This document shows, piece by piece, positions 1,496 through 13,424 of a stretch of DNA of 64,000 bases. The notes beneath the pieces were generated by a model that was not told where the DNA came from, did not search any database, and was given only the letters and a program-made list of their open reading frames with translations. The stretch is from NCBI RefSeq assembly GCF_056746865.1, contig NZ_CM163382.1. One strand, written 5' to 3'. Position 1 is the first letter of the stretch. Each line of letters begins with the position of its first letter. A program made the translations under genes and the position numbers.

Positions 1496-2416
1496 ATGGG
1501 ATTGTTTACGACCCGCCAGTTACTCGGTTATACCGAACAAAAAGTGAAATTCCGTGCGCTGTTTCTGGAGCTGTTTTTCCGCCGTACGGTGAATTTCCAC
1601 ACCGAAGAGGTGATGCTGGACAAAATTACCGGAAAAACGCCGGTGGCGGCCTATGTCTCCCCAATCGTTGAAGGAAAAGTGCTTCGCCATCGCGGTGGTG
1701 AAACCCGCGTGTTACGTCCGGGCTACGTCAAGCCCAAACACGAATTTAGCACGCCGGAGGGGGAGCGGTATATCCCTTGTGTGAATATTTCCGCGGAGCC
1801 GGAGGCGTATTTTCGTATCGCACCGGAAGACTGGCTGCGGGCAGAGATGCAGGGGGAGATTGTGGCACTGGTCCACAGTCATCCCGGTGGGCTGCCCTGG
1901 CTGAGCGAGGCTGACCGGCGGCTGCAGATAAAAAGCGCACTGCCCTGGTGGCTGGTCTGCCGGGGTGACATTCACAAATTCCGCTGTGTGCCACATCTGA
2001 CGGGACGGCGCTTTGAGCACGGGGTGACGGACTGTTACACGCTGTTCCGGGATGCTTATCATCTGGCGGGGACTGAAATGCCGGATTTTCATCGCGAGGA
2101 TGACTGGTGGCGCAACGGCCAGAACCTGTACCTGGACAACCTGGCGGAAAACGGCTTTTGCCGGGTGTCTCCGTCCTCTGCACAGGCAGGCGATGTGCTG
2201 CTGTGCTGCTTTGGATCATCGGTGCCGAATCATGCCGCCGTTTACTGTGGTGACGGCGAGCTGCTGCACCATATTCCTGAACAACTGAGTAAACGGGAGA
2301 GGTATTCCGAAAAATGGCAACGACGAACGCATTCAGTCTGGCGTCACCGCCACTGGCACGCATCCGCCTTTACGGGGATTTACAACGATTTGGCCGCCGC
2401 CTCAGCCTGTATGTGA
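1496..2416 (+). CDS. Chimeric ORF: first ~84 aa of major capsid protein (lambda E-like) fused in frame to tail assembly protein K (JAMM/MPN plus NlpC/P60)
   Basis: N-terminus FTTRQLLGYTEQKVKF...YVSPIVEGKV...PGYVKPKHEF matches the lambda gpE N-terminus. Downstream are the JAMM motif (E...HSHPGG...SEAD) and NlpC/P60 Cys/His (DCYTLF...NHAAVY) typical of gpK. The 3' end overlaps the I gene as in lambda. Confidence 0.75.
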   Translation: MGLFTTRQLLGYTEQKVKFRALFLELFFRRTVNFHTEEVMLDKITGKTPVAAYVSPIVEGKVLRHRGGETRVLRPGYVKPKHEFSTPEGERYIPCVNISAEPEAYFRIAPEDWLRAEMQGEIVALVHSHPGGLPWLSEADRRLQIKSALPWWLVCRGDIHKFRCVPHLTGRRFEHGVTDCYTLFRDAYHLAGTEMPDFHREDDWWRNGQNLYLDNLAENGFCRVSPSSAQAGDVLLCCFGSSVPNHAAVYCGDGELLHHIPEQLSKRERYSEKWQRRTHSVWRHRHWHASAFTGIYNDLAAASACM

Positions 2417-2994
2417 ACACGGCAGCGGAAGCCATTCGCGCCCTGTCGATGCAGATGCCGGGCTTTCGCCGTCAGATGAACGAAGGCTGGTACCAGATAC
2501 GTATTGCCGGTGATGACACGGCACCGGAGGCGGTGTACGCCCGTCTTCACGAACAGCTGGGTGAGGGAACGGTCATCCATATTGTGCCGCGACTGGCCGG
2601 GGCCGGAAAGGGTGGACTGCAGATTGTGCTGGGGGCGGCAGCCATCGTGGGCTCTTTCTTCACTGCCGGTGCCTCGATGGCGTTATGGGGTACAGCCCTG
2701 AGTGCCGGCGGTTTTTCTGCCACCACGATGCTGTTTTCACTGGGGGCCAGCATGATACTGGGCGGTGTGGCCCAGATGCTGGCCCCGAAGGCAAAAACAC
2801 CGGATTACCGCGCAACGGATAACGGCAGACAGAACACGTACTTTTCCTCGCTGGATAACATGATTGCCCAGGGGAACCCGATGCCGGTGCCTTACGGGGA
2901 AATGCTGGTTGGCTCCCGCCGTATATCCCAGGACATCAGCACCCGTGATGAAGGCGGGGGCGGAAAGGTCGTGGTTATCGGGCGGCAGGGGTAA
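2314..2994 (+). CDS. Tail assembly protein I
   Basis: 226 aa, lambda gpI-like (LYGDLQRFGRR...GWYQIRIAGDD...QNTYFSSLDNM...), overlaps the 3' end of K. Confidence 0.85.
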   Translation: MATTNAFSLASPPLARIRLYGDLQRFGRRLSLYVNTAAEAIRALSMQMPGFRRQMNEGWYQIRIAGDDTAPEAVYARLHEQLGEGTVIHIVPRLAGAGKGGLQIVLGAAAIVGSFFTAGASMALWGTALSAGGFSATTMLFSLGASMILGGVAQMLAPKAKTPDYRATDNGRQNTYFSSLDNMIAQGNPMPVPYGEMLVGSRRISQDISTRDEGGGGKVVVIGRQG

Positions 2995-2997
2995 AAA

Positions 2998-3097
2998 GAA
3001 TAAAAAAATCCCGCAGTGATCGCGGACAGGAACTGCGGGAGAGTTACGAAGATTAAGTGTAAGGAATTATTCTTATGTCACGACAAAAAAATTAACG
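2998..3097 (-). ncRNA. Candidate small RNA (prophage moron) between I and J
   Basis: Minus-strand sigma70-like promoter (TTCACA-16 bp-TATAAT) followed ~100 nt later by a GC stem (CCCGCAGT...ACTGCGGG) and a U-tract. No plausible ORF in the transcribed segment. Confidence 0.3.
3010..3039 (-). terminator. Rho-independent terminator, minus strand
   Basis: 8-bp GC-rich stem CCCGCAGT/ACTGCGGG followed on the minus strand by ATTTTTTTATTCTTTTT. Confidence 0.5.
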
Positions 3098-3104
3098 CAG
3101 AGAA

Positions 3105-3132
3105 ATTATACGCGCCACAGTCAGTTTGTGAA
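3105..3132 (-). promoter_or_regulatory. Predicted sigma70 promoter for the I-J intergenic transcript
   Basis: Minus-strand -35 TTCACA (plus 3127-3132), 16-bp spacer, perfect -10 TATAAT (plus 3105-3110). Confidence 0.35.
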
Positions 3133-3170
3133 AATGTGAAGATATTCAGAATTTTTATTCAGTCATGATA

Positions 3171-3200
3171 CAGGCATCCTCCGGGGTGCCTGTTGTTTTT
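3171..3200 (+). terminator. Rho-independent terminator-like hairpin just upstream of J
   Basis: Stem CAGGCA.../...TGCCTG followed by TTGTTTTTT on the plus strand. Confidence 0.4.
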
Positions 3201-3244
3201 TGGGCATAAACAGATTCAGACATCAGACAGGAGAGGGGGAGCGA

Positions 3245-6200
3245 GTGGGTAAAGGTGGCGGTAAGGCGCACACACCGCGCGAGGCGAAGGATAATCTCAA
3301 ATCCACGCAGATGATGAGTGTGATTGATGCGATTGGTGAGGGACCGATAGAAGGTCCGGTGAAGGGACTGCAGAGTATCCTGGTGAACAAAACCCCGCTG
3401 ACGGACACGGACGGTAATCCCGTGATACACGGTGTGACCGCGGTCTGGCGTGCCGGGGAGCAGGAGCAGACACCACCGGAAGGCTTTGAGTCCTCCGGAG
3501 CTGAAACCGGACTGGGCGTGGAAGTGACGAAGGCAAAACCGGTGACGCGCACCATTACGTCCGCGAACATTGACCGCCTGCGGGTTACCTTCGGGGTGCA
3601 GTCACTGGTGCAGACCACGTCAAAGGGTGACCGTAACCCGACATCCGTCCGCCTGCTGATTCAGTTACAGCGTAACGGTAACTGGGTGACAGAAAAGGAC
3701 GTCACCATTAACGGCAAGACCACCTCACAGTTCCTGGCCTCGGTGATTCTGGATAATCTGCCTCCCCGGCCCTTTAACATCCGGATGGTCAGGGAGACGG
3801 CGGACAGCACCACGGACCAGCTGCAGAATAAGACGCTGTGGTCGTCATACACCGAAATCATCGATGTGAAACAGTGCTACCCGAACACGGCCATTGTGGG
3901 GCTGCAGGTGGATGCGGAGCAGTTCGGCGGCCAGCAGATGACGGTGAACTACCATATCCGCGGTCGCATCATCCAGGTGCCGTCAAACTATGACCCGGAA
4001 AAACGCACGTACAGTGGTATCTGGGACGGCAGCCTGAAACCGGCATACAGCAACAACCCGGCCTGGTGTCTGTGGGACATGCTGACTCACCCGCGCTACG
4101 GCATGGGAAAACGTCTGGGGGCGGCGGATGTGGACAAGTGGGCGCTGTATGCCATCGGGCAGTACTGCGACCAGACGGTCCCGGATGGTTTCGGGGGGAC
4201 CGAGCCGCGGATGACCTTTAATGCGTACCTGGCACAACAGCGTAAGGCGTGGGACGTTCTCAGTGATTTCTGCTCTGCGATGCGCTGTATGCCGGTATGG
4301 AACGGCCAGACGCTGACGTTCGTTCAGGACCGTCCGTCGGATGTGGTGTGGCCGTACACCAACAGCGATGTGGTGGTGGATGATAACGGCGTGGGTTTCC
4401 GCTACAGCTTCAGTGCCCTGAAGGACCGGCACACGGCAGTGGAGGTGAATTACACCGACCCGCAGAACGGCTGGCAGACCTCCACGGAACTGGTGGAAGA
4501 CCCGGAAGCCATACTGCGCTACGGACGCAACCTGCTGAAGATGGACGCGTTCGGCTGTACCAGCCGCGGTCAGGCCCACCGTGCCGGGCTGTGGGTGATA
4601 AAGACCGAACTGCTGGAAACGCAGACGGTGGATTTCACGCTCGGGTCACAGGGGCTGCGTCACACACCCGGTGACATCATTGAAATCTGTGATAACGACT
4701 ATGCCGGGACCATGACCGGCGGACGTGTCCTGTCCATCGATGCCGCCAGCCGTACCCTGACGCTGGACCGGGAGGTGACACTGCCGGAGACCGGCACGGC
4801 CACTGTTAATCTGATTAACGGCAGCGGTAAGCCGGCGAGCGTGGCCATCACCGCACACCCCGCGCCTGACCGGATACAGGTCAGCACCCTGCCGGATGGT
4901 GTGGAGACATACGGTGTGTGGGGACTCTCCCTGCCGTCACTGCGTCGTCGCCTGTTCTGCTGTGTCTCCATCCGGGAAAACACGGACGGCACGTTCGCCA
5001 TCACGGCGGTGCAGCACGTACCGGAAAAAGAAGCCATTGTGGATAACGGGGCCAGCTTTGAGCCGCAGTCAGGCAGCCTGAACAGCGTTATCCCACCGGC
5101 AGTGCAGCACCTGACGGTGGAGGTGAGTGCAGCTGACGGTCAGTATCTGGCACAGGCGAAATGGGACACGCCGCGGGTGGTGAAGGGTGTGCGCTTCAGT
5201 CTGCGTCTGACCAGCGGAAGCGGAGAAGACAGCCGTCTGGTGAGCACCGCCATCACCGCAGACACGGAGCACCGTTTCAGTGGTCTGCCGCTGGGGGAAT
5301 ACACCCTGACGGTGCGGGCCATTAACAGCTACGGCCAGCAGGGCGAACCTGCGACCACCACCTTCCGGATTAACGCGCCTGCAAAACCCGCCACCATTGA
5401 GCTGACGCCGGGGTATTTTCAGATAACGGCGGTCCCGCGTCTTGCGGTGTATGACCCGACGGTACAGTTTGAATTCTGGTTCTCAGAAAAACGCATCACG
5501 AACACGGCACAGGTGGAAAAATCTGCCCGTTATCTGGGGACCGGCAGTCAGTGGACTGTCCAGGGGAGCCGGATTAAGCCGGGGACGGATTTCTGGTTTT
5601 ACGTGCGAAGCGTCAACCTGGTGGGAAAATCTGCTTTTGTGGAAGCCAGCGGGCAGCCCAGCAATGATGGTGAAGGGTATCTGGAAATTTTCCGGGGGCT
5701 GATAGATGAGACGCTTCTGGGCCAGGCACTGAAAGAGCGCATTGATGCTTCAGCGCTGCGTACGGAGGTCACGCAACTGGAAGAAGACATCCGTCAGCGG
5801 ATGGACACGGATATCGCAGAAGTGACCCGGAAAATCGGGGAGGCGGAAAACAGCCTCACGCAGCTGGTTGCGAAAAAGAATGAGGACCAGACACTGGCCA
5901 TCGCGCAGGTGAGCCAGAAAGTGGACCGGGTGAGCAGTGAAATCTCACAGACTGTCAGCCAGGGGCAGTCAGAAAATGCCCGACAGATAGCACAGGTCCG
6001 CCAGTACGTGGATAAAAAAGGGAGTGAAATTACCTCGACCACGGATAAAAAACTGGGTGACCAGGCCGTGACCATACAGCAAATCCAGCGGGTTCAGTCA
6101 GACACGCGCAATGAGCTGAATGCCATGTATATGCTGAAGGTGCAGAAAACAAAAAACGGTATTCCCTATGTGGCCGGGATTGGTGCGGGGATTGAGGATG

Positions 6201-6937
6201 TTGATGGTCAGACGCTGAGCAGTATTCTGCTGCAGGCTGACCGTATCGCGATGATTACCCCGGAGAACGGCAACACCACGCCGCTGTTTGTGGCGCAGGG
6301 GAATCAGCTGTTCATGAACGACGTGTTCCTGAAGCGACTGTTTGCGGTGAGCATCACGTCATCCGGCAATCCTCCGACGTTTTCCCTGACGCCGGATGGC
6401 AGGCTGACAGCCCGCAATGCGGATATCAGTGGAGCCATCACGGCGAATACCGGCACGCTCAATAATGTCACCATTAACGAGAACTGTGTCATCAGAGGGA
6501 AACTGTCTGCAAACCAGATTGAAGGCGATCTCGTTAAAACAGTGGGTAAGGCTTTCCCTCGTGACTCCCGTGCACCGAAGCGGTGGCCATCAGGAACCAT
6601 TACCGTCAGGGTTTATGACGATCAGCCGTTTAACCGGCAGATTGTTATTCCGGCGGTGGCTTTCAGCGGTGCCAGACATGAGCGGGAGAACAGCGATACT
6701 TATTCGTCATGCCGCCTGATAGTGAAGAAAAACGGTGCTGAAATTTATAACCGTACCGCGCTGGATAATACGCTGATTTACAGTGGTGTTATTGATATGC
6801 CAGCTGGTCGCGGCCACATGACGCTGGAGTTTTCTGTATCAGCATGGTGGGTAAATGGCTGGTATCCCACAGCAAGTATCAGCGATTTGCTGGTTGTTGT
6901 GATGAAGAAAGCCACTGCAGGCATCACGATTAGCTGA
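3245..6937 (+). CDS. Host specificity / central tail fiber protein J
   Basis: About 1230 aa, collinear with lambda gpJ ([21 protein letters not shown]...). Start is probably GTG at 3245 after a GGAG-rich SD; the TTG at 3200 in the ORF track is unlikely. Confidence 0.9.
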
Positions 6938-6956
6938 ATTTTATAACCCCAATACG

Positions 6957-6980
6957 GGCGCCAGAAATGGTGCCTTTTTT
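6957..6980 (+). terminator. Terminator-like hairpin after J
   Basis: GGCGCC-AGAAAT-GGTGCC (one G-U pair) followed by TTTTTT. Confidence 0.4.
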
Positions 6981-7004
6981 ATTGCAGAAAAGCGAGAGGT
7001 AATT

Positions 7005-7604
7005 ATGCGTAAAGTTTGTGCAGCCATTTTGTCCGCAGCCATCTGTCTGTCCGTATCCGGTGCGCCTGCATGGGCGTCTGAACATCAGTCCACACTGAGC
7101 GCAGGGTATCTTCATGCCCGTACGAACGCTCCCGGCAGCGATAATCTGAACGGGATTAACGTGAAATACCGTTATGAGTTTACGGACGCGCTGGGGCTGA
7201 TTACGTCCTTCAGTTATGCCAATGCTGAGGATGAGCAAAAAACGCACTACAGCGATACCCGCTGGCATGAAGATTCCGTGCGTAACCGCTGGTTCAGCGT
7301 GATGGCGGGGCCGTCTGTACGCGTGAATGAATGGTTCAGCGCGTATGCGATGGCGGGTGTGGCTTACAGCCGTGTGTCGACTTTCTCCGGGGATTATCTC
7401 CGCGTAACTGACAACAAGGGGAAAAAGCACGATGTGCTGACCGGAAGTGATGACGGTCGCCACAGCAACACGTCTCTGGCGTGGGGAGCTGGCGTGCAGT
7501 TTAACCCGACCGAATCCGTGGCCATTGATGTCGCTTATGAAGGCTCCGGCAGCGGTGACTGGCGTACCAACAGTTTCATCGTTGGTGTCGGTTATAAGTT
7601 CTGA
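7005..7604 (+). CDS. lom: Lom-family outer membrane protein (Ail/Lom/PagC beta-barrel)
   Basis: 199 aa with signal peptide and the C-terminal ...AYEGSGSGDWRTNSFIVGVGYKF of lambda Lom. Lies between J and stf as in lambda. Confidence 0.85.
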   Translation: MRKVCAAILSAAICLSVSGAPAWASEHQSTLSAGYLHARTNAPGSDNLNGINVKYRYEFTDALGLITSFSYANAEDEQKTHYSDTRWHEDSVRNRWFSVMAGPSVRVNEWFSAYAMAGVAYSRVSTFSGDYLRVTDNKGKKHDVLTGSDDGRHSNTSLAWGAGVQFNPTESVAIDVAYEGSGSGDWRTNSFIVGVGYKF

Positions 7605-7630
7605 TTAGCCAGGTAACACAGTGTTATGAC

Positions 7631-7658
7631 AGCCCGCCGGTTCAGGCGGGCTTTTTTG
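7631..7658 (+). terminator. Rho-independent terminator after lom
   Basis: AGCCCGCC-GGTTCAG-GGCGGGCT followed by TTTTTT. Confidence 0.6.
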
Positions 7659-7668
7659 TGGAGTGGAT

Positions 7669-10600
7669 ATGGCAGCAGTAAAAATCTCAGGTGTGCTGAA
7701 AGATGGCACAGGAAAACCAGTACAGAACTGCACCATTGTGCTGAAGGCCAGACGAACCAGCAGCACGGTGGTGGTGAACACGGTGGCCTCTGAAAATCCG
7801 GATGAAGCCGGACGTTACAGCATGGATGTTGAGCATGGCCAGTACAGCGTCACCCTGCTGGTTGAAGGTTTTCCGCCTTCACATGCCGGGACCATTACCG
7901 TCTATGAAGGTTCCAGACCAGGTACGCTGAATGATTTTCTCGGTGCCATGACGGAGGATGATGTCCGACCGGAGGCACTGCGCCGCTTTGAGCAGATGGT
8001 GGAAGAGGTGTCACGTAACGCCTCCGCGGTTGCACAGAATACGGCAGCCGCGAAAAAATCAGCCAGCGATACCAGTGCATCAGCCAGCGAGGCGGCAACT
8101 CATGCAACCGATGCTGCAGCCTCAGCACGTGCCGCCAGCACGTCAGCCGGACAGGCCGCGTCGTCGGCTCAGTCAGCGTCTTCCAGCGCAGGAACGGCAT
8201 CGACAAAGGCCCGTGAAGCAGCAAAAAGTGCTGCTGCTGCAGAGTCATCAAAAAGCGCGGCAGCTACCAGCGCCAGTGCCGCGAAAACGTCAGAAACGAA
8301 TGCCGCAGCATCACAAAAATCGGCAGCCACTTCTGCATCCACAGCGACCACGAAGGCGTCAGAAGCTGCCACCTCGGCACGGGGTGCGGCGGCCTCAAAA
8401 GAGGCAGCGAAATCTTCAGAAACGAATGCATCATCAAGTGCCAGTAGTGCAGCTTCCTCGGCAACGGCGGCAGGAAATTCCGCGAAGGCGGCAAAAACGT
8501 CCGAGACGAACGCTAAGTCTTCTGAAACAGCAGCGGGACAGAGCGCCTCAGCTGCGGCAGGTTCAAAAACAGCGGCTGTATTATCTGCCAGTGCCGCGTC
8601 AACAAGTGCCGGGCAGGCCTCAGCCAGTGCCACCGCCGCCGGAAAATCGGCAGAAAGCGCCGCATCATCCGCTTCAACAGCCACAACGAAGGCTGGCAAA
8701 GCCACTGAGCAAGCCACTGCAGCAGCGAGGTCTGCTTCTGCAGCAAAAACCTCTGAAACAAATGCAAAGACTTCAGCAGACAATGCTGCTTCCTCTAAGG
8801 CGGCAGCCGCATCGTCAGCCAGTTCAGCGGCGTCATCGGCATCATCTGCGTCTGCTTCAAAAGATGAGGCGACCAGACAAGCGTCAGCAGCGAAAGGTAG
8901 TGCCACGACAGCAACAACGAAAGCATCAGAGGCGGCAGGCAGTGCGACGGCTGCATCTCAGAGCAAAGTTGCTGCTGAATCCGCGGCAACGCGCGCCGAG
9001 ACAGCAGCAAAACGGGCAGAGGATATTGCATCCGCCGTGGCGCTGGAGGATGCGAGCACGACGAAAAAGGGGATAGTACAGCTCAGCAGTGCAACAAACA
9101 GCACCAGTGAAAAGCTGGCGGCAACGCCAAAGGCAGTTAAAACTGTTAAAGATAGTTCAGTTCAAAAAACTGGCGACACAATGGGAGGGCAGTTAAAAAT
9201 CAGCACGATAAATGCTCTTCGAATATTCAACCAAGCCTTTGGCCTTATTTTTAGGCGTTCCGAAGATCATCTTCATCTTATTCCGACTAATGAAGGGGAG
9301 GGGGAAAATGGAGACATCGGTTCATTAAGACCATTCTCTATAAACTTAAGATCAGGGTTGGTGTCCATCGGTAATGGACTAAAAGTTGGTGGTAGTGTTA
9401 CTGGTAATTTGACCGGAAACGCAGATACTGCGACCAAGATCAAGACAGCACGTAAGATTGGGGGCGTGGCATTTGATGGATCGGCAGATATCAACTTGCC
9501 TGGAGTCAACGCTACCGGTAATCAAAACACTACAGGTAATGCTGCGACCGCCACGAAACTTCAGGCAGCCAGAACGATTAACGGTGTGTCATTTGATGGT
9601 AGTGCAAATATCACATTGACCCCTTCAAATATTGGGGCATTGGCATTAACTGGAGGGACTCTTTCAGGTGGTTTAACTGCTGCTGGTGAGGTTATTTCAA
9701 GGTCAGCAAATGGTCTGCGTATTGCCTATGGCAACTATGGATTCTTTATCCGAAATGATGGATCAAACACATATTTTATGTTGACAGATTCGGGTAACAG
9801 TCTTGGTACGCACAATAGCTTAAGGCCGTTTATAATTAGTAACCATACTGGCAATGTTACAATTGCAACTAAATTAAACGCGAGTGGTGGTATCACTGGA
9901 TCTTTATCGGGTAATGCAAGCACAGCAACCAAATTGCAAACTGCAAGGACAATTAACGGCGTAAAATTTGACGGCTCGGCAAATATTGAAGCGTTTCCGC
10001 CAGGTGTTCCGCTGCCGTGGCCATCAGATACACCACCTGCAGGTTATGCAATCATGCAGGGGCAGACGTTTGATAAGGCAGCATATCCGAAACTGGCTAT
10101 TGCCTATCCTTCAGGTGTTATTCCAGATATGCGCGGCTGGACAATCAAGGGCAAACCCGCCAGTGGCCGGGCCGTATTGTCTCAGGAACAGGACGGCATT
10201 AAATCGCACACCCACAGCGCCAGCGCATCCAGTACGGATTTGGGGACGAAAACCACATCGTCGTTTGATTACGGCACTAAATCCACGAATAACACCGGGG
10301 CGCATACGCACAGTCTGAGTGGCTCTACGGGGTCTGCCGGTGTTCATACTCATGGTAATGGTATTCGTTGGCCAGGAGGCGGCGGTTCTGCGTTAGCATT
10401 TTATGATGGCGGTGGGTTCACTTATGTCCAGAATTCACAGTATCAAGTAAGCCCGGAGACTTCTTCCTATAGATCGTATTATCAACGTATTCAGACACAG
10501 TCAGCAGGTGCTCATACCCACTCGCTGTCTGGTACTGCAGCAAGTTCTGGCGCACATGCACATACTGTAGGTATTGGTGCGCATACGCACTCCGTTGCGA

Positions 10601-10698
10601 TTGGTTCACATGGACACACCATCACCGTTAACGCTGCGGGTAACGCGGAAAACACCGTCAAAAACATCGCATTTAACTATATTGTGAGGCTTGCATAA
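7669..10698 (+). CDS. stf: Side tail fiber protein Stf
   Basis: N-terminus [21 protein letters not shown]... like lambda Stf, long Ala/Ser-rich TSETNA repeat region, C-terminal GAHTHS repeats. ATG at 7669 has a GGAG SD 5 nt upstream (the track's GTG at 7663 is less likely). Confidence 0.85.
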
Positions 10699-11282
10699 TG
10701 GCATTCAGAATGAGTGAACAACCACGGACCATAAAAATTTATAATCTGTTGTCCGGAACTAATGAATTTATTGGTGAAGGTGATGCATATATTCCGCCTC
10801 ATACAGGTCTGCCAGCAAACAGTACCGATATTGCACCGCCAGATATTCCGGCTGGCTTCGTGGCTGTTTTCAATAGTGATGAGTCATCGTGGCATCTCGT
10901 TGAAGACCATCGGGGTAAAACGGTTTATGACGTAGCGTCAGGGGACGAGTTATTTATTTCTGAACTCGGTCCGTTACCGGAAAATGTTACCTGGTTATCG
11001 CCGGAAGGGGAGTTTCAGAAGTGGAACGGCACAGCCTGGGTGAAGGATACGGAAGCAGAAAAACTGTTCCGGATCCGGGAGGCGGAAGAAACAAAAAACA
11101 ACCTGATGCAGGTAGCCAGTGAGCATATTGCGCCGCTTCAGGATGCTGCAGATCTGGAAATTGCAACGGAGGAAGAAACCTCATTGCTGGAAGCCTGGAA
11201 AAAGTATCGGGTGTTGCTGAACCGTGTTGATACATCAACTGCACCTGATATTGAGTGGCCTACGAACCCTGTCAGGGAGTAA
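10698..11282 (+). CDS. tfa: Tail fiber assembly protein Tfa
   Basis: 194 aa, start overlaps the stf stop (TAATG), Tfa-like sequence. Confidence 0.8.
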
Positions 11283-11336
11283 TCATTGGGATTATGCCGC
11301 AGCACGTCTTAAGCAAGAACGTGCTGCGGTTGGATG

Positions 11337-12005
11337 CTATTTTTTCCCTGAAGCGGAAAACATTACTACAGTACCTTGAACCTTGGTTTTAACATTCTCG
11401 AAATGCTCTGAGAGTATATGTGTTAAGCCTTCTTCGGAATCTTTTGTGTTTGAAAAGATGCCTTTCTGATTGTAAATGCGCATCAGTTTTTGACCGAAGC
11501 TATTGTGCACAACTCCATCGCCAAGAATTGTGGCTCCGTATAGAGTTCCATCGTCAGTTAAGGCCTGCGCCGCATTGCGTATTACACAGCTTTTTGTAGA
11601 TATATTTCCAGGCAGGCAGTGAAGAAGGTAAAACATGGAAATGGAATCAAATTGACCATGTAACGCCGCGGGATAAGGTTCAAAAACATCATGGCTAATT
11701 TTATGTTTAATTTTTGATTCCCCAGCCCTTGTAGATGCCGCGTTCAGGCTAGCTTCGTTCAAATCCATTAAAGATATCAGACTACTCTCAGGTACGTGAG
11801 TAAGGTAAAACCCAGTTCCAACACCAATATCCAGATGGTTGTTACCTAAATGTTCCAGAAAGTGTGGAAGAAGGTGTTCCTTTGTAGGACATCCCCATGC
11901 AAGCCGATTTGATACTCCCAAAACCCACCAGTCATAAAGCTTTAGGGTAAGTGGTGTGTAAATTTTAGCCCCATCATCTGTGTTTTTTTTCATTGATTTC
12001 ACCAT
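11337..12005 (-). CDS. Class I SAM-dependent methyltransferase (prophage cargo gene, substrate unknown)
   Basis: Rossmann motif I LDIGVGTGF, about 220 aa, AT-richer than neighbours, opposite strand between tfa and a tfa fragment. More likely start is ATG at 11993 (GGTGA SD). Confidence 0.6.
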   Translation of the reverse strand: MVKSMKKNTDDGAKIYTPLTLKLYDWWVLGVSNRLAWGCPTKEHLLPHFLEHLGNNHLDIGVGTGFYLTHVPESSLISLMDLNEASLNAASTRAGESKIKHKISHDVFEPYPAALHGQFDSISMFYLLHCLPGNISTKSCVIRNAAQALTDDGTLYGATILGDGVVHNSFGQKLMRIYNQKGIFSNTKDSEEGLTHILSEHFENVKTKVQGTVVMFSASGKK

Positions 12006-12024
12006 GTTATAGTTTTATTTGTAA

Positions 12025-12053
12025 ATTAAATCAATTATGGCGATGAATTACAA
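12025..12053 (-). promoter_or_regulatory. Predicted sigma70 promoter of the methyltransferase gene
   Basis: Minus-strand TTGTAA-17 bp-TTTAAT just upstream of the ATG. Confidence 0.3.
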
Positions 12054-12061
12054 GGGGTTAA

Positions 12062-12328
12062 ATGCTGCCGCAGCATAGCGATATTGAAATAGCCTGGTAT
12101 GCTTCGATACAGCAGGAGCCGAATGGCTGGAAGACCGTCACCACACAGTTCTACATCCAGGAATTCAGTGAGTATATTGCGCCACTGCAGGATGCTGTAG
12201 ATCTGGAAATCGCAACGGAGGAAGAAAGATCGTTGCTGGAGGCATGGAATAAATATCGGGTGTTGTTGAATCGTGTTGATACATCAACTGCACCTGATAT
12301 TGAGTGGCCGACTTCACCTGCAGAGTAA
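12062..12328 (+). pseudogene. Tail fiber assembly protein fragment (duplicated tfa 3' end with unrelated N-terminus)
   Basis: 88 aa. The C-terminal ~50 aa ([18 protein letters not shown]...DIEWPT) nearly repeats the C-terminus of the full tfa at 10698-11282. Confidence 0.55.
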
Positions 12329-12560
12329 TCAACGGCGCAGGGATGATATTTTGTGCTTGAAGTGCCTCCCCGACCATTCAGATAGTCGGGGAGGGGGGAT
12401 TGGGATTATACGCAATCAGTTTTAGTTAAAGACCGAAGTTCTCGAAAAATCTTTCTCCAAAACCAGAATGCAATTGATTGATTTTGATAGGATCTATAAT
12501 GCCGTTACCTTAAACGGCAAAACCACTCAAAAACAAACCTAATGCATTGAATATAAAGGA
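12329..12560. other. Prophage-chromosome junction region (candidate att site) with a 10-bp-stem hairpin at 12365-12394
   Basis: Non-coding segment between the tfa fragment and the potB stop. The ATG immediately after the potB stop is followed by only a 9-codon ORF, not a potC-length reading frame. Confidence 0.4.
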
Positions 12561-13424
12561 TTAATCATCTAATTCGCTCACCTTCTTATTCAGCAAACGA
12601 GAAGCGCGCCAGTAAACCAGCAACATCAGGCCCATTACGATAGTCAGCGTAATGCTGGTGGCTGCACCAAACGGCCAGTCACGAATATTGAGGAACTGTA
12701 CTTTGATGACGTTACCGATCAGCAGGTTTTTCGCACCGCCCATCAGGTCGGACACATAGAACAGGCCCATCGCTGGCAGCATCACCAACAGGCATCCGGC
12801 AATAATCCCCGGCATCGTCAGTGGGATAATGATACGGATAAAGGTCTGCAACTTGCTGGCACCGAGATCGCGCGCCGCCTCCAGCAACGGCTTATCCAGT
12901 TTTTCGATACTCGAGTACAGCGGCATCACCATAAACGGCAGCAGAATGTAAACCAGACCGATAATCACCGCACTGGGTGTGAACATGATGCGAATTGGTG
13001 TATCGATAACGCCCAGCCAGAGCAAAAACTCGTTGAGATAGCCTTTGGTGCTGAGGAAAATTTTCAGCCCGTAGATACGAATCAATGAGTTGGTCCAGAA
13101 CGGAACAATCAGCAGAAACAGCAGCAGCGGACGCACCTTGTGTGGCAGCTTCGCCAGAAACCAGGCAAAAGGATAGCCCAGCACCAGGCAGGCGAGGGTG
13201 GCGATCAGCGCCATATTCAGCGAGTGCAATAGCACTTCAAAATAGAGCGGATCGAGCAGACGCGTGTAGTTATCCAGCGTAAAGACCATTTTGACGAAAC
13301 TGGCGTCGTCGCGGGTCAAAAAGCTGGTGCCAATGATCATCAGGTTGGGCAGAAAGACAAACAACACAAGCCAACCGACAATAGTGACAATCACTACATT
13401 CTGGAACTTACTTGTGTTCTTCAT
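12561..13424 (-). CDS. potB: Spermidine/putrescine ABC transporter permease PotB
   Basis: Protein matches PotB and overlaps the potA 3' end. An internal start near 13388 would give the shorter annotated form. Confidence 0.9.

Follow-up and report, generated by a model that had tools for sequence, protein, structure and literature searches.

A ybcY-type methyltransferase gene occupies a variable cargo slot at the end of a lambdoid prophage in potB

Why does a gene for an S-adenosylmethionine (SAM)-dependent methyltransferase lie at the end of a set of phage tail genes, on the opposite strand and between a complete tail fibre assembly gene (tfa) and the remains of a second one? We examined this question in a 64,000-nt stretch of contig NZ_CM163382.1 (assembly GCF_056746865.1), hereafter the window, the left part of which is a lambdoid tail module with a J-like open reading frame (ORF) of 1245 aa, lom, stf and tfa. 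Judged by sequence identity, the methyltransferase gene is an intact allele of ybcY (b0562), a gene that has long been annotated, and the element is already known. We consider it reasonably probable that the gene belongs to a ybcY-type autonomous unit, or moron, at the end of a lambdoid prophage and that it encodes a small-molecule methyltransferase serving lysogenic conversion.

The assignment to ybcY follows from comparison with K-12 W3110, in which a frameshifted pseudogene annotated as 'class I SAM-dependent methyltransferase' matches the gene at 99.1% DNA identity over 669 nt. In W3110 it has a tfa pseudogene on either side, and appY, ompT and envY come next, which places it at the right end of prophage DLP12 (tfaD′-ybcY′-tfaX′). 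The AlphaFold database (AFDB) entry B7MEX0, 'AdoMet-dependent methyltransferase DLP12 prophage', is 100% identical to the protein. An initial annotation of the window, made from the letters and a list of ORFs, had interpreted the locus largely correctly but had not recognized the gene as the ybcY of K-12 DLP12 with its tfaD′ and tfaX′ neighbours. The two loci share the order and orientation of the tfa 3′ part, a hairpin, the minus-strand methyltransferase gene, a divergent spacer with the same promoter hexamers (TTGATT-17-TATAAC) and the tfa relic. They differ in that the K-12 ORF is frameshifted whereas the ORF in the window is intact, and in that the window has complete copies of tfa and the tail fibre genes. 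Moreover, the present prophage is integrated at potB and DLP12 at argU, and the cassette abuts the attachment junction here, where K-12 carries appY-ompT-envY.

Within the window, tfa (10698–11282, plus strand; 194 aa) is the last gene of the phage late/tail operon; it matches phrog_105 'tail fiber assembly' (E = 1e-100) and is labelled 'tail fiber assembly protein' by RefSeq in identical genomes. The methyltransferase ORF follows on the minus strand and extends to an ATG at 12005 (222 aa). Its true start is probably the methionine at residue 5 (M5), which gives a gene of 11337–11993 and a product of 218 aa, because most homologues are 218 aa long and a 218-position PHROG profile matches residues 5–222. 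One PHROG family, phrog_2132, listed there with unknown function, is matched over its full profile (E = 8e-157). On the other side of the gene lies an 88-aa ORF, 'tfaX' (12062–12328, plus strand), which phrog_2341 matches over residues 1–88 and which RefSeq annotates as a tfa pseudogene lacking its N terminus. Only 12166–12328, the last ~54 codons of this ORF, derives from tfa: its first ~31 codons are not tfa-like, and in the PHROG search tfa profiles match just the last ~58 residues (~29–87). GC content falls from ~0.50 in tfa to 0.39–0.43 over the cassette. The ORF map thus agrees with the initial description of a ~220-aa minus-strand methyltransferase ORF between a full tfa and an 88-aa tfa fragment. 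The same description had the cassette embedded in the tail fibre module; in fact the module ends before the cassette begins, and the cassette occupies the very end of the prophage.

The position of that end comes from alignment with the prophage-free potC-potB region of K-12. To the right of the cassette are the chromosomal genes potB (12561–13424, minus strand), potA and pepT, and the junction between prophage and chromosome falls at approximately 12575–12580, inside the 3′ end of potB, with identity to prophage-free K-12 beginning at ~12579. PotB has 287 aa here and 285 aa in K-12, its last codons being supplied by phage DNA. The methyltransferase cassette is ~570 bp from this junction, and with the prophage ending at ~12575–12580 it therefore makes up the last ~1.3 kb of prophage DNA. 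Between the tfa relic and the attachment junction there is a second, GC-rich hairpin (CTCCCCGAC...GTCGGGGAG; 12365–12394; minus-strand folding free energy (dG) −25.7 kcal/mol, z −3.5), which could have served originally as the late-operon terminator of the resident phage. The gene potC must be past the other prophage end, outside the window.

How the cassette came to be bracketed by tfa sequences is addressed by the repeats themselves. The tfa 3′ ends form a direct repeat of 158 nt (11106–11263 and 12155–12312) in which 139 of the 158 positions are identical (88%), so that the earlier claim of direct repeats stands and its wording 'near-identical' does not. Homology starts sharply at 11117/12166 and stops at ~11261/12310, before two different stop codons; the longest perfect block is 38 bp (11223–11260). 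We built the cassette-free sequence expected from recombination between the repeats and searched for it in Escherichia coli genomes. It was found as one contiguous piece, at 98.3% identity and at the same potB site, in genomes that include O104:H4 2009EL-2071, TUM9757 and FDAARGOS_401. A shorter diagnostic query that cassette-bearing genomes cannot cover detected the cassette-free allele in 45 genomes, as against 1106 with the cassette at the same potB site. Because these alleles carry every tfa-specific single-nucleotide polymorphism up to 11222 and every tfa′-specific base from 11261, the crossover took place in the 38-bp perfect block. The allele comparison supports a model in which homologous recombination now and then removes the cassette precisely, and the cassette-free alleles at the same locus support the earlier proposal that the cassette was acquired or is exchangeable in this way. 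The locus is a clean natural example of apparent cassette loss through 38 bp of perfect identity within a repeat that is 88% identical overall. The flanking repeats would be the scar of a mosaic recombination event in which a tfa-methyltransferase module became attached midway along a resident tfa; they would be dispensable for function while permitting rare, precise cassette loss. A Pin-type invertible tail fibre switch was also considered and rejected: the tfa ends are direct and not inverted repeats, and this prophage end holds no invertase.

Related prophages show the same slot filled in other ways. In the DLP12-type prophage of O157:H7 EDL933, the position between tfa and the methyltransferase gene holds a Mn-catalase gene, two ferritin-like genes and a general stress gene (locus 2331–4544), and an insertion sequence (IS66), an alpha/beta hydrolase gene and ompT lie beyond the tfa relic. 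Phage Kati carries a DNA invertase between tfa and the methyltransferase gene, and phage ev243 has a different tail fibre module. With the 45 cassette-free genomes, this survey confirms that the slot carries variable cargo. Across 5426 complete E. coli genomes, the methyltransferase gene is present in 3831 (71%), in 4876 places, with at least 99% DNA identity in 3267 records; it also occurs in 15 phage records, inducible lambdoid phages among them. At a coverage of at least 80%, the segment running from its 5′ half through the spacer into tfa′ was found in 3421 records and the segment joining the tfa 3′ end, the hairpin and the 3′ half of the gene in 2357; the whole 2-kb arrangement including the potB edge occurs in the 1106 genomes counted above. 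Break points recur at the hairpin (11297) and at 12091, 12286, 12309 or ~12400, and homology to O157:H7 and others begins at window position 11297, making the hairpin the left module boundary elsewhere. These recurrent break points therefore define a mobile core of hairpin, gene and promoter, usually accompanied by the tfa relic.

So widespread a gene might nevertheless be a functionless passenger: a decaying relic, silenced by H-NS, that is carried along with prophage ends and ompT and is without a role in E. coli. The frameshift in K-12, the listing of the spacer as H-NS-bound, the many truncated protein clusters (161, 172, 194 and 198 aa, for example), the lack of any phenotype reported in the literature and the very existence of cassette-free alleles are what one would expect of such a relic. 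Its sequence evolution argues otherwise. Ratios of non-synonymous to synonymous substitution rates (dN/dS) were calculated between genera because pairs within E. coli differ by only 1–7 substitutions, which is too few. They are 0.21 against the Citrobacter orthologue and 0.17 and 0.11 against two Salmonella orthologues, at dS of 0.22, 0.41 and 1.0, and values of 0.1–0.2 at unsaturated dS show, as far as substitution rates can, that the gene is under purifying selection. In addition, the full-length 222-aa protein cluster has 6589 members, the gene is highly conserved at the DNA level in the 3267 records noted above, and cassette-free alleles are rare. The gene also stays intact where nearly all other phage genes have been deleted, as in the decayed DLP12 remnant at argU, where int′, tfa′, an intact 218-aa methyltransferase gene and ompT are all that is left. 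We therefore regard the passenger explanation as improbable.

What, then, does the enzyme do? Pfam profiles Methyltransf_12 (6e-9), _23, _25, _11 and _31 match the protein. Motif I reads LDIGVGTGF from residue 58 (LDIGVGTG, residues 58–65), and the acidic D81 at the end of strand β2 is invariant in 26 homologues and at least 90% conserved in 124 representatives. An AlphaFold 2 model built from the 26 homologues has a mean predicted local distance difference test (pLDDT) score of 90.3. With its profile matches and a predicted seven-stranded α/β fold, the product is modelled as a class I (Rossmann-fold) SAM-dependent methyltransferase; Pfam domains, motif I, predicted fold and fold search all agree with the class given in the initial annotation. 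That the enzyme is probably not a DNA methyltransferase, as also proposed there, holds as well. None of DPPY, NPPY, NPPF, DPPF, SPPY, NPPW, DPPW or PCQ occurs in the sequence, an invariant HCLPG follows strand 4 in place of the DNA-methyltransferase motif IV, and a Foldseek search of the PDB returned no DNA methyltransferases, with neither structural similarity to such enzymes nor a target-recognition domain. An exhaustive profile search collected 419 representative clusters at E < 1e-30. In the 124 of the best 150 representatives that are 200–290 aa long and 30–56% identical to the query, the positions conserved in at least 90% are Y16, Y24-D25, W37.C39, HCLPG (129–133), K138, F184.N186..D189 and the SAM motifs. 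Longer family members, which are possible fusions, had no informative names on look-up.

The structural matches place the protein among generic class I enzymes that act on small molecules or lipids (PmtA 8ys9, JHAMT, PfPMT and SgvM in the PDB, at template-modelling (TM) scores of ~0.6). A search of PDB sequences and profiles gave only weak matches to JHAMT and UbiG, and in NCBIfam only CpaM and RquA were matched, at ~17 bits against cut-offs of 175–180, so that no curated family applies. A coherent family emerged from AFDB50, at TM ~0.9, with many fungal proteins at 33–47% identity, including one named vrtF. Among them, the Swiss-Prot protein VerB (A0A1V6NVX3) is 36% identical over 226 columns (Foldseek, TM 0.90/0.88, E = 4e-26). 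VerB/DovB and AurB/CtvB/AstB O-methylate the α-pyrone hydroxyl of polyene pyrones, an activity demonstrated for DovB (PMC12312803). The bacterial protein resembles these enzymes as a member of the same ~220–250-aa single-domain family, in which other fungal members reach 45–47% identity; it differs in genetic setting, as the fungal genes are tailoring steps in highly reducing polyketide synthase clusters, whereas the bacterial and phage genes are solitary. By this homology, the most likely chemistry would be O-methylation of an acidic hydroxyl of enol or phenol type. The identity to methyltransferases of Ascomycota, Basidiomycota and lichens (33–47%) is also unusually high for a bacterium–fungus pair, and for that reason the comparison suggests inter-kingdom transfer of the family.

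The same moron could carry out a different reaction, namely N-, C- or S-methylation of a small metabolite or lipid head group, such as the N-methylation of phospholipids in the manner of PmtA, or the methylation of a toxin that bears a thiol or an amine. The best Foldseek match in the PDB is indeed a bacterial phosphatidylethanolamine N-methyltransferase of similar length (8ys9, 207 aa), other top matches are PfPMT, the C-methyltransferase SgvM, NodS and TmtA, and the weak NCBIfam matches to CpaM and RquA point the same way. Set against these is the fact that the only homologues with both real identity (33–47%, TM ~0.9) and a known activity are O-methyltransferases, and we view this alternative chemistry as unlikely.

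Homologues on other replicons inform both the substrate and the possibility of a role in conflict between phages. Solitary homologues occur in Salmonella and Enterobacter chromosomes and on plasmid-like or IS-rich Salmonella contigs; the Citrobacter orthologue lies on an island and is followed by a full dinI. In ~600 Klebsiella plasmids, a homologue that is 65% identical either is transcribed divergently from rmpA, on hypervirulence plasmids such as Klebsiella pneumoniae pRJA166b (5837–7663), or has zigA as its neighbour, and the rmpA-adjacent gene has been reported as a liver-abscess-associated marker by linkage (PMC5126061). Homologues in Rhodococcus equi (Prescottella equi) are 32–42% identical, and the one in the vap pathogenicity island adjoins virR (a divergent LysR regulator gene), icgA and vapH (pVAPA2282, 4839–6717). 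In these two unrelated virulence plasmids, the divergent neighbour (rmpA or virR) is thus a key regulator of virulence. Further homologues are found on Erwinia pEA29 and on Rhodococcus and Nocardia plasmids; a search from the R. equi homologue for a characterized actinobacterial member returned only unnamed Rhodococcus and Nocardia proteins, and we claim no link to such a member, for example the Mycobacterium tuberculosis methyltransferase cited in PMC5126061. Like the gene in the window, the methyltransferase genes beside rmpA and in the vap island are single, partnerless accessory cargo of mobile elements; unlike it, they are borne by plasmids and not by phages. Across the Salmonella, Enterobacter, Citrobacter, Klebsiella, Erwinia, Rhodococcus, metagenomic and fungal loci examined, no partner gene is conserved. 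These solitary contexts therefore point to a stand-alone enzyme acting on an available small molecule, and not to a step in a local pathway or a structural role in the phage.

Slots at prophage ends are common sites for defence and anti-defence cargo. On that general ground, and since the gene travels with inducible phages, the enzyme might modify a nucleotide-derived signal, an anti-phage small molecule or a nucleic acid and so contribute to superinfection exclusion or counter-defence. We find this very unlikely: PADLOC returned nothing significant, its best result being a partial match to the methyltransferase domain of mad2 (E = 0.003, 14.4 bits), the DNA-methyltransferase motif IV is absent, the gene stands alone with neither an effector nor a sensor partner, and its close relatives are common in fungi and at chromosomal and plasmid sites outside phages.

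Whether the methyltransferase gene could be expressed on its own depends on the sequences at its two ends. Upstream, an AT-rich putative promoter region on the minus strand (12006–12061) contains two hexamer pairs: TTAACC-16-CATAAT at 12061..12034, which was recovered by a consensus scan, and TTGATT (12034–12029)-17-TATAAC (12011–12006). The second pair is the published ybcY promoter of K-12, where Shimada et al. found a peak of RpoD holoenzyme binding in the divergent ybcY<>tfaX spacer using systematic evolution of ligands by exponential enrichment (SELEX) and where the spacer is flagged as bound by H-NS (PMC3946193). Binding of the spacer by RpoD and H-NS has thus been shown by others, for the K-12 orthologue only. 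Just upstream of the promoter, the Prokaryotic Genome Annotation Pipeline (PGAP) marks, in one genome, a frameshifted DinI-family fragment (window 12080–12159, minus strand); tblastn on the window gave this putative dinI relic a weak match (E = 0.27).

At the downstream end, the 54 bp that separate tfa from the convergent methyltransferase gene are occupied by a strong hairpin (11296–11330; dG −28.5 kcal/mol, z −6.3); none of 200 shuffled sequences folds as well. The initial annotation had called it a terminator. Its great stability is confirmed; read on the methyltransferase strand, however, it is not followed by a U-run and so does not qualify as a canonical terminator in that direction; the tfa strand has a T-run only after a 9-nt spacer, and a consensus terminator scan does not call the hairpin. 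A 51-aa ORF (window 11224–11379, plus strand) spans the tfa stop codon, the hairpin and the methyltransferase 3′ end, and a 138-nt ORF overlapping it is listed in RefSeq as 'hypothetical protein' WP_001309429.1 and in K-12 as 'nucleocapsid protein' WP_071592174.1. The ORF call across the tfa stop and hairpin (11224–11379) is almost certainly spurious.

Taken with its position, this organization suggests a phage moron in which promoter, 218-aa ORF and hairpin would form an autonomous unit beyond the last tail gene, on the strand opposite to it. The unit would be transcribed in the lysogen from its own σ70 promoter, subject to silencing by H-NS and independently of phage late transcription. Its soluble product is predicted to act on a small molecule, and not on DNA or the tail fibre, and it may serve lysogenic conversion or host fitness, plausibly by modifying a hydroxylated heterocyclic or phenolic compound so that it is masked or detoxified. 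Classical lambdoid morons such as lom and bor of phage lambda are similar in being extra genes of lower GC content with a hairpin, which otherwise homologous phages may have or lack, which lie where modules meet and which are probably expressed from the prophage; they have their own promoter, as the unit here would. There are also differences: lom and bor encode envelope proteins whereas the product here would be a cytoplasmic enzyme whose expression in the lysogen we infer, and the hairpin here lacks a U-tract on the strand of its own gene.

Several observations weigh against this moron reading. The region holds no more promoter-like sites than shuffled sequence would (3 found, against 4.5 ± 2.2 expected), so that the σ70-like promoter named in the initial annotation draws its support from the published RpoD SELEX data on the orthologous K-12 spacer and not from our consensus scan. 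The published −10 hexamer abuts the ATG at 12005, which therefore implies either a start at M5, on a near-leaderless mRNA, or use of the upstream promoter. The link to O-methyltransferases consists of 36% identity and a shared fold, a distance at which the type of acceptor atom is not reliably conserved; the top fold matches in the PDB mix N- and C-methyltransferases (PmtA, PfPMT, SgvM) with O-methyltransferases, and no polyketide synthase is encoded in the window neighbourhood or at any bacterial homologue locus examined. Gain of the cassette from a donor through the same homologies is the reverse of the loss event, and extant alleles leave the direction unproven. H-NS binding, the K-12 frameshift and the many truncated database alleles indicate that the gene is often silent or lost. 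A K-12 ybcY mutant, in a strain where the gene is already a pseudogene, had no effect in one screen; our search of the literature on ybcY/b0562 found no functional study, and returned only the promoter listing, a locus description and this negative phenotype.

A bolder extension of the moron reading, which we hold to be speculative and rather improbable, is that YbcY-family proteins are mobile, cross-kingdom, stand-alone O-methyltransferases that help their carriers (lysogens, hypervirulent Klebsiella and R. equi) to tolerate hydroxylated heterocyclic toxins or metabolites of the host or microbiota. Candidate compounds would be hydroxypyrones, hydroxyquinolones and phenolics, and if this were true the gene would be one for xenobiotic resistance, carried by phages and contributing to colonization of the host. 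As an element, the cassette is ordinary: a textbook moron, found in most E. coli genomes and already annotated under the name ybcY. What interest it retains is that a well-conserved enzyme under apparent purifying selection is carried by ~70% of E. coli, with close relatives beside rmpA and in the R. equi virulence island. If its substrate were named, a very widespread part of accessory metabolism would be explained.

Two other genes of the tail module bear features of their own. Between the J-like tail tip gene and stf lies an Ail/Lom-family outer-membrane β-barrel gene (7005–7604, plus strand), a second classical moron at the same prophage end, which scores under the curated cut-offs of the OmpX and Rck equivalogs. 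The side tail fibre gene (7663–10698, plus strand) encodes 1011 aa with an Ala/Ser/Thr-rich low-complexity stretch at residues ~110–440. Towards its C terminus, the fibre carries the His-x-His boxes GAHTHS, GAHAHT, GAHTHS and GSHGHT, which are encoded by a family of short DNA repeats (10297–10311, 10507–10521 and 10576–10590).

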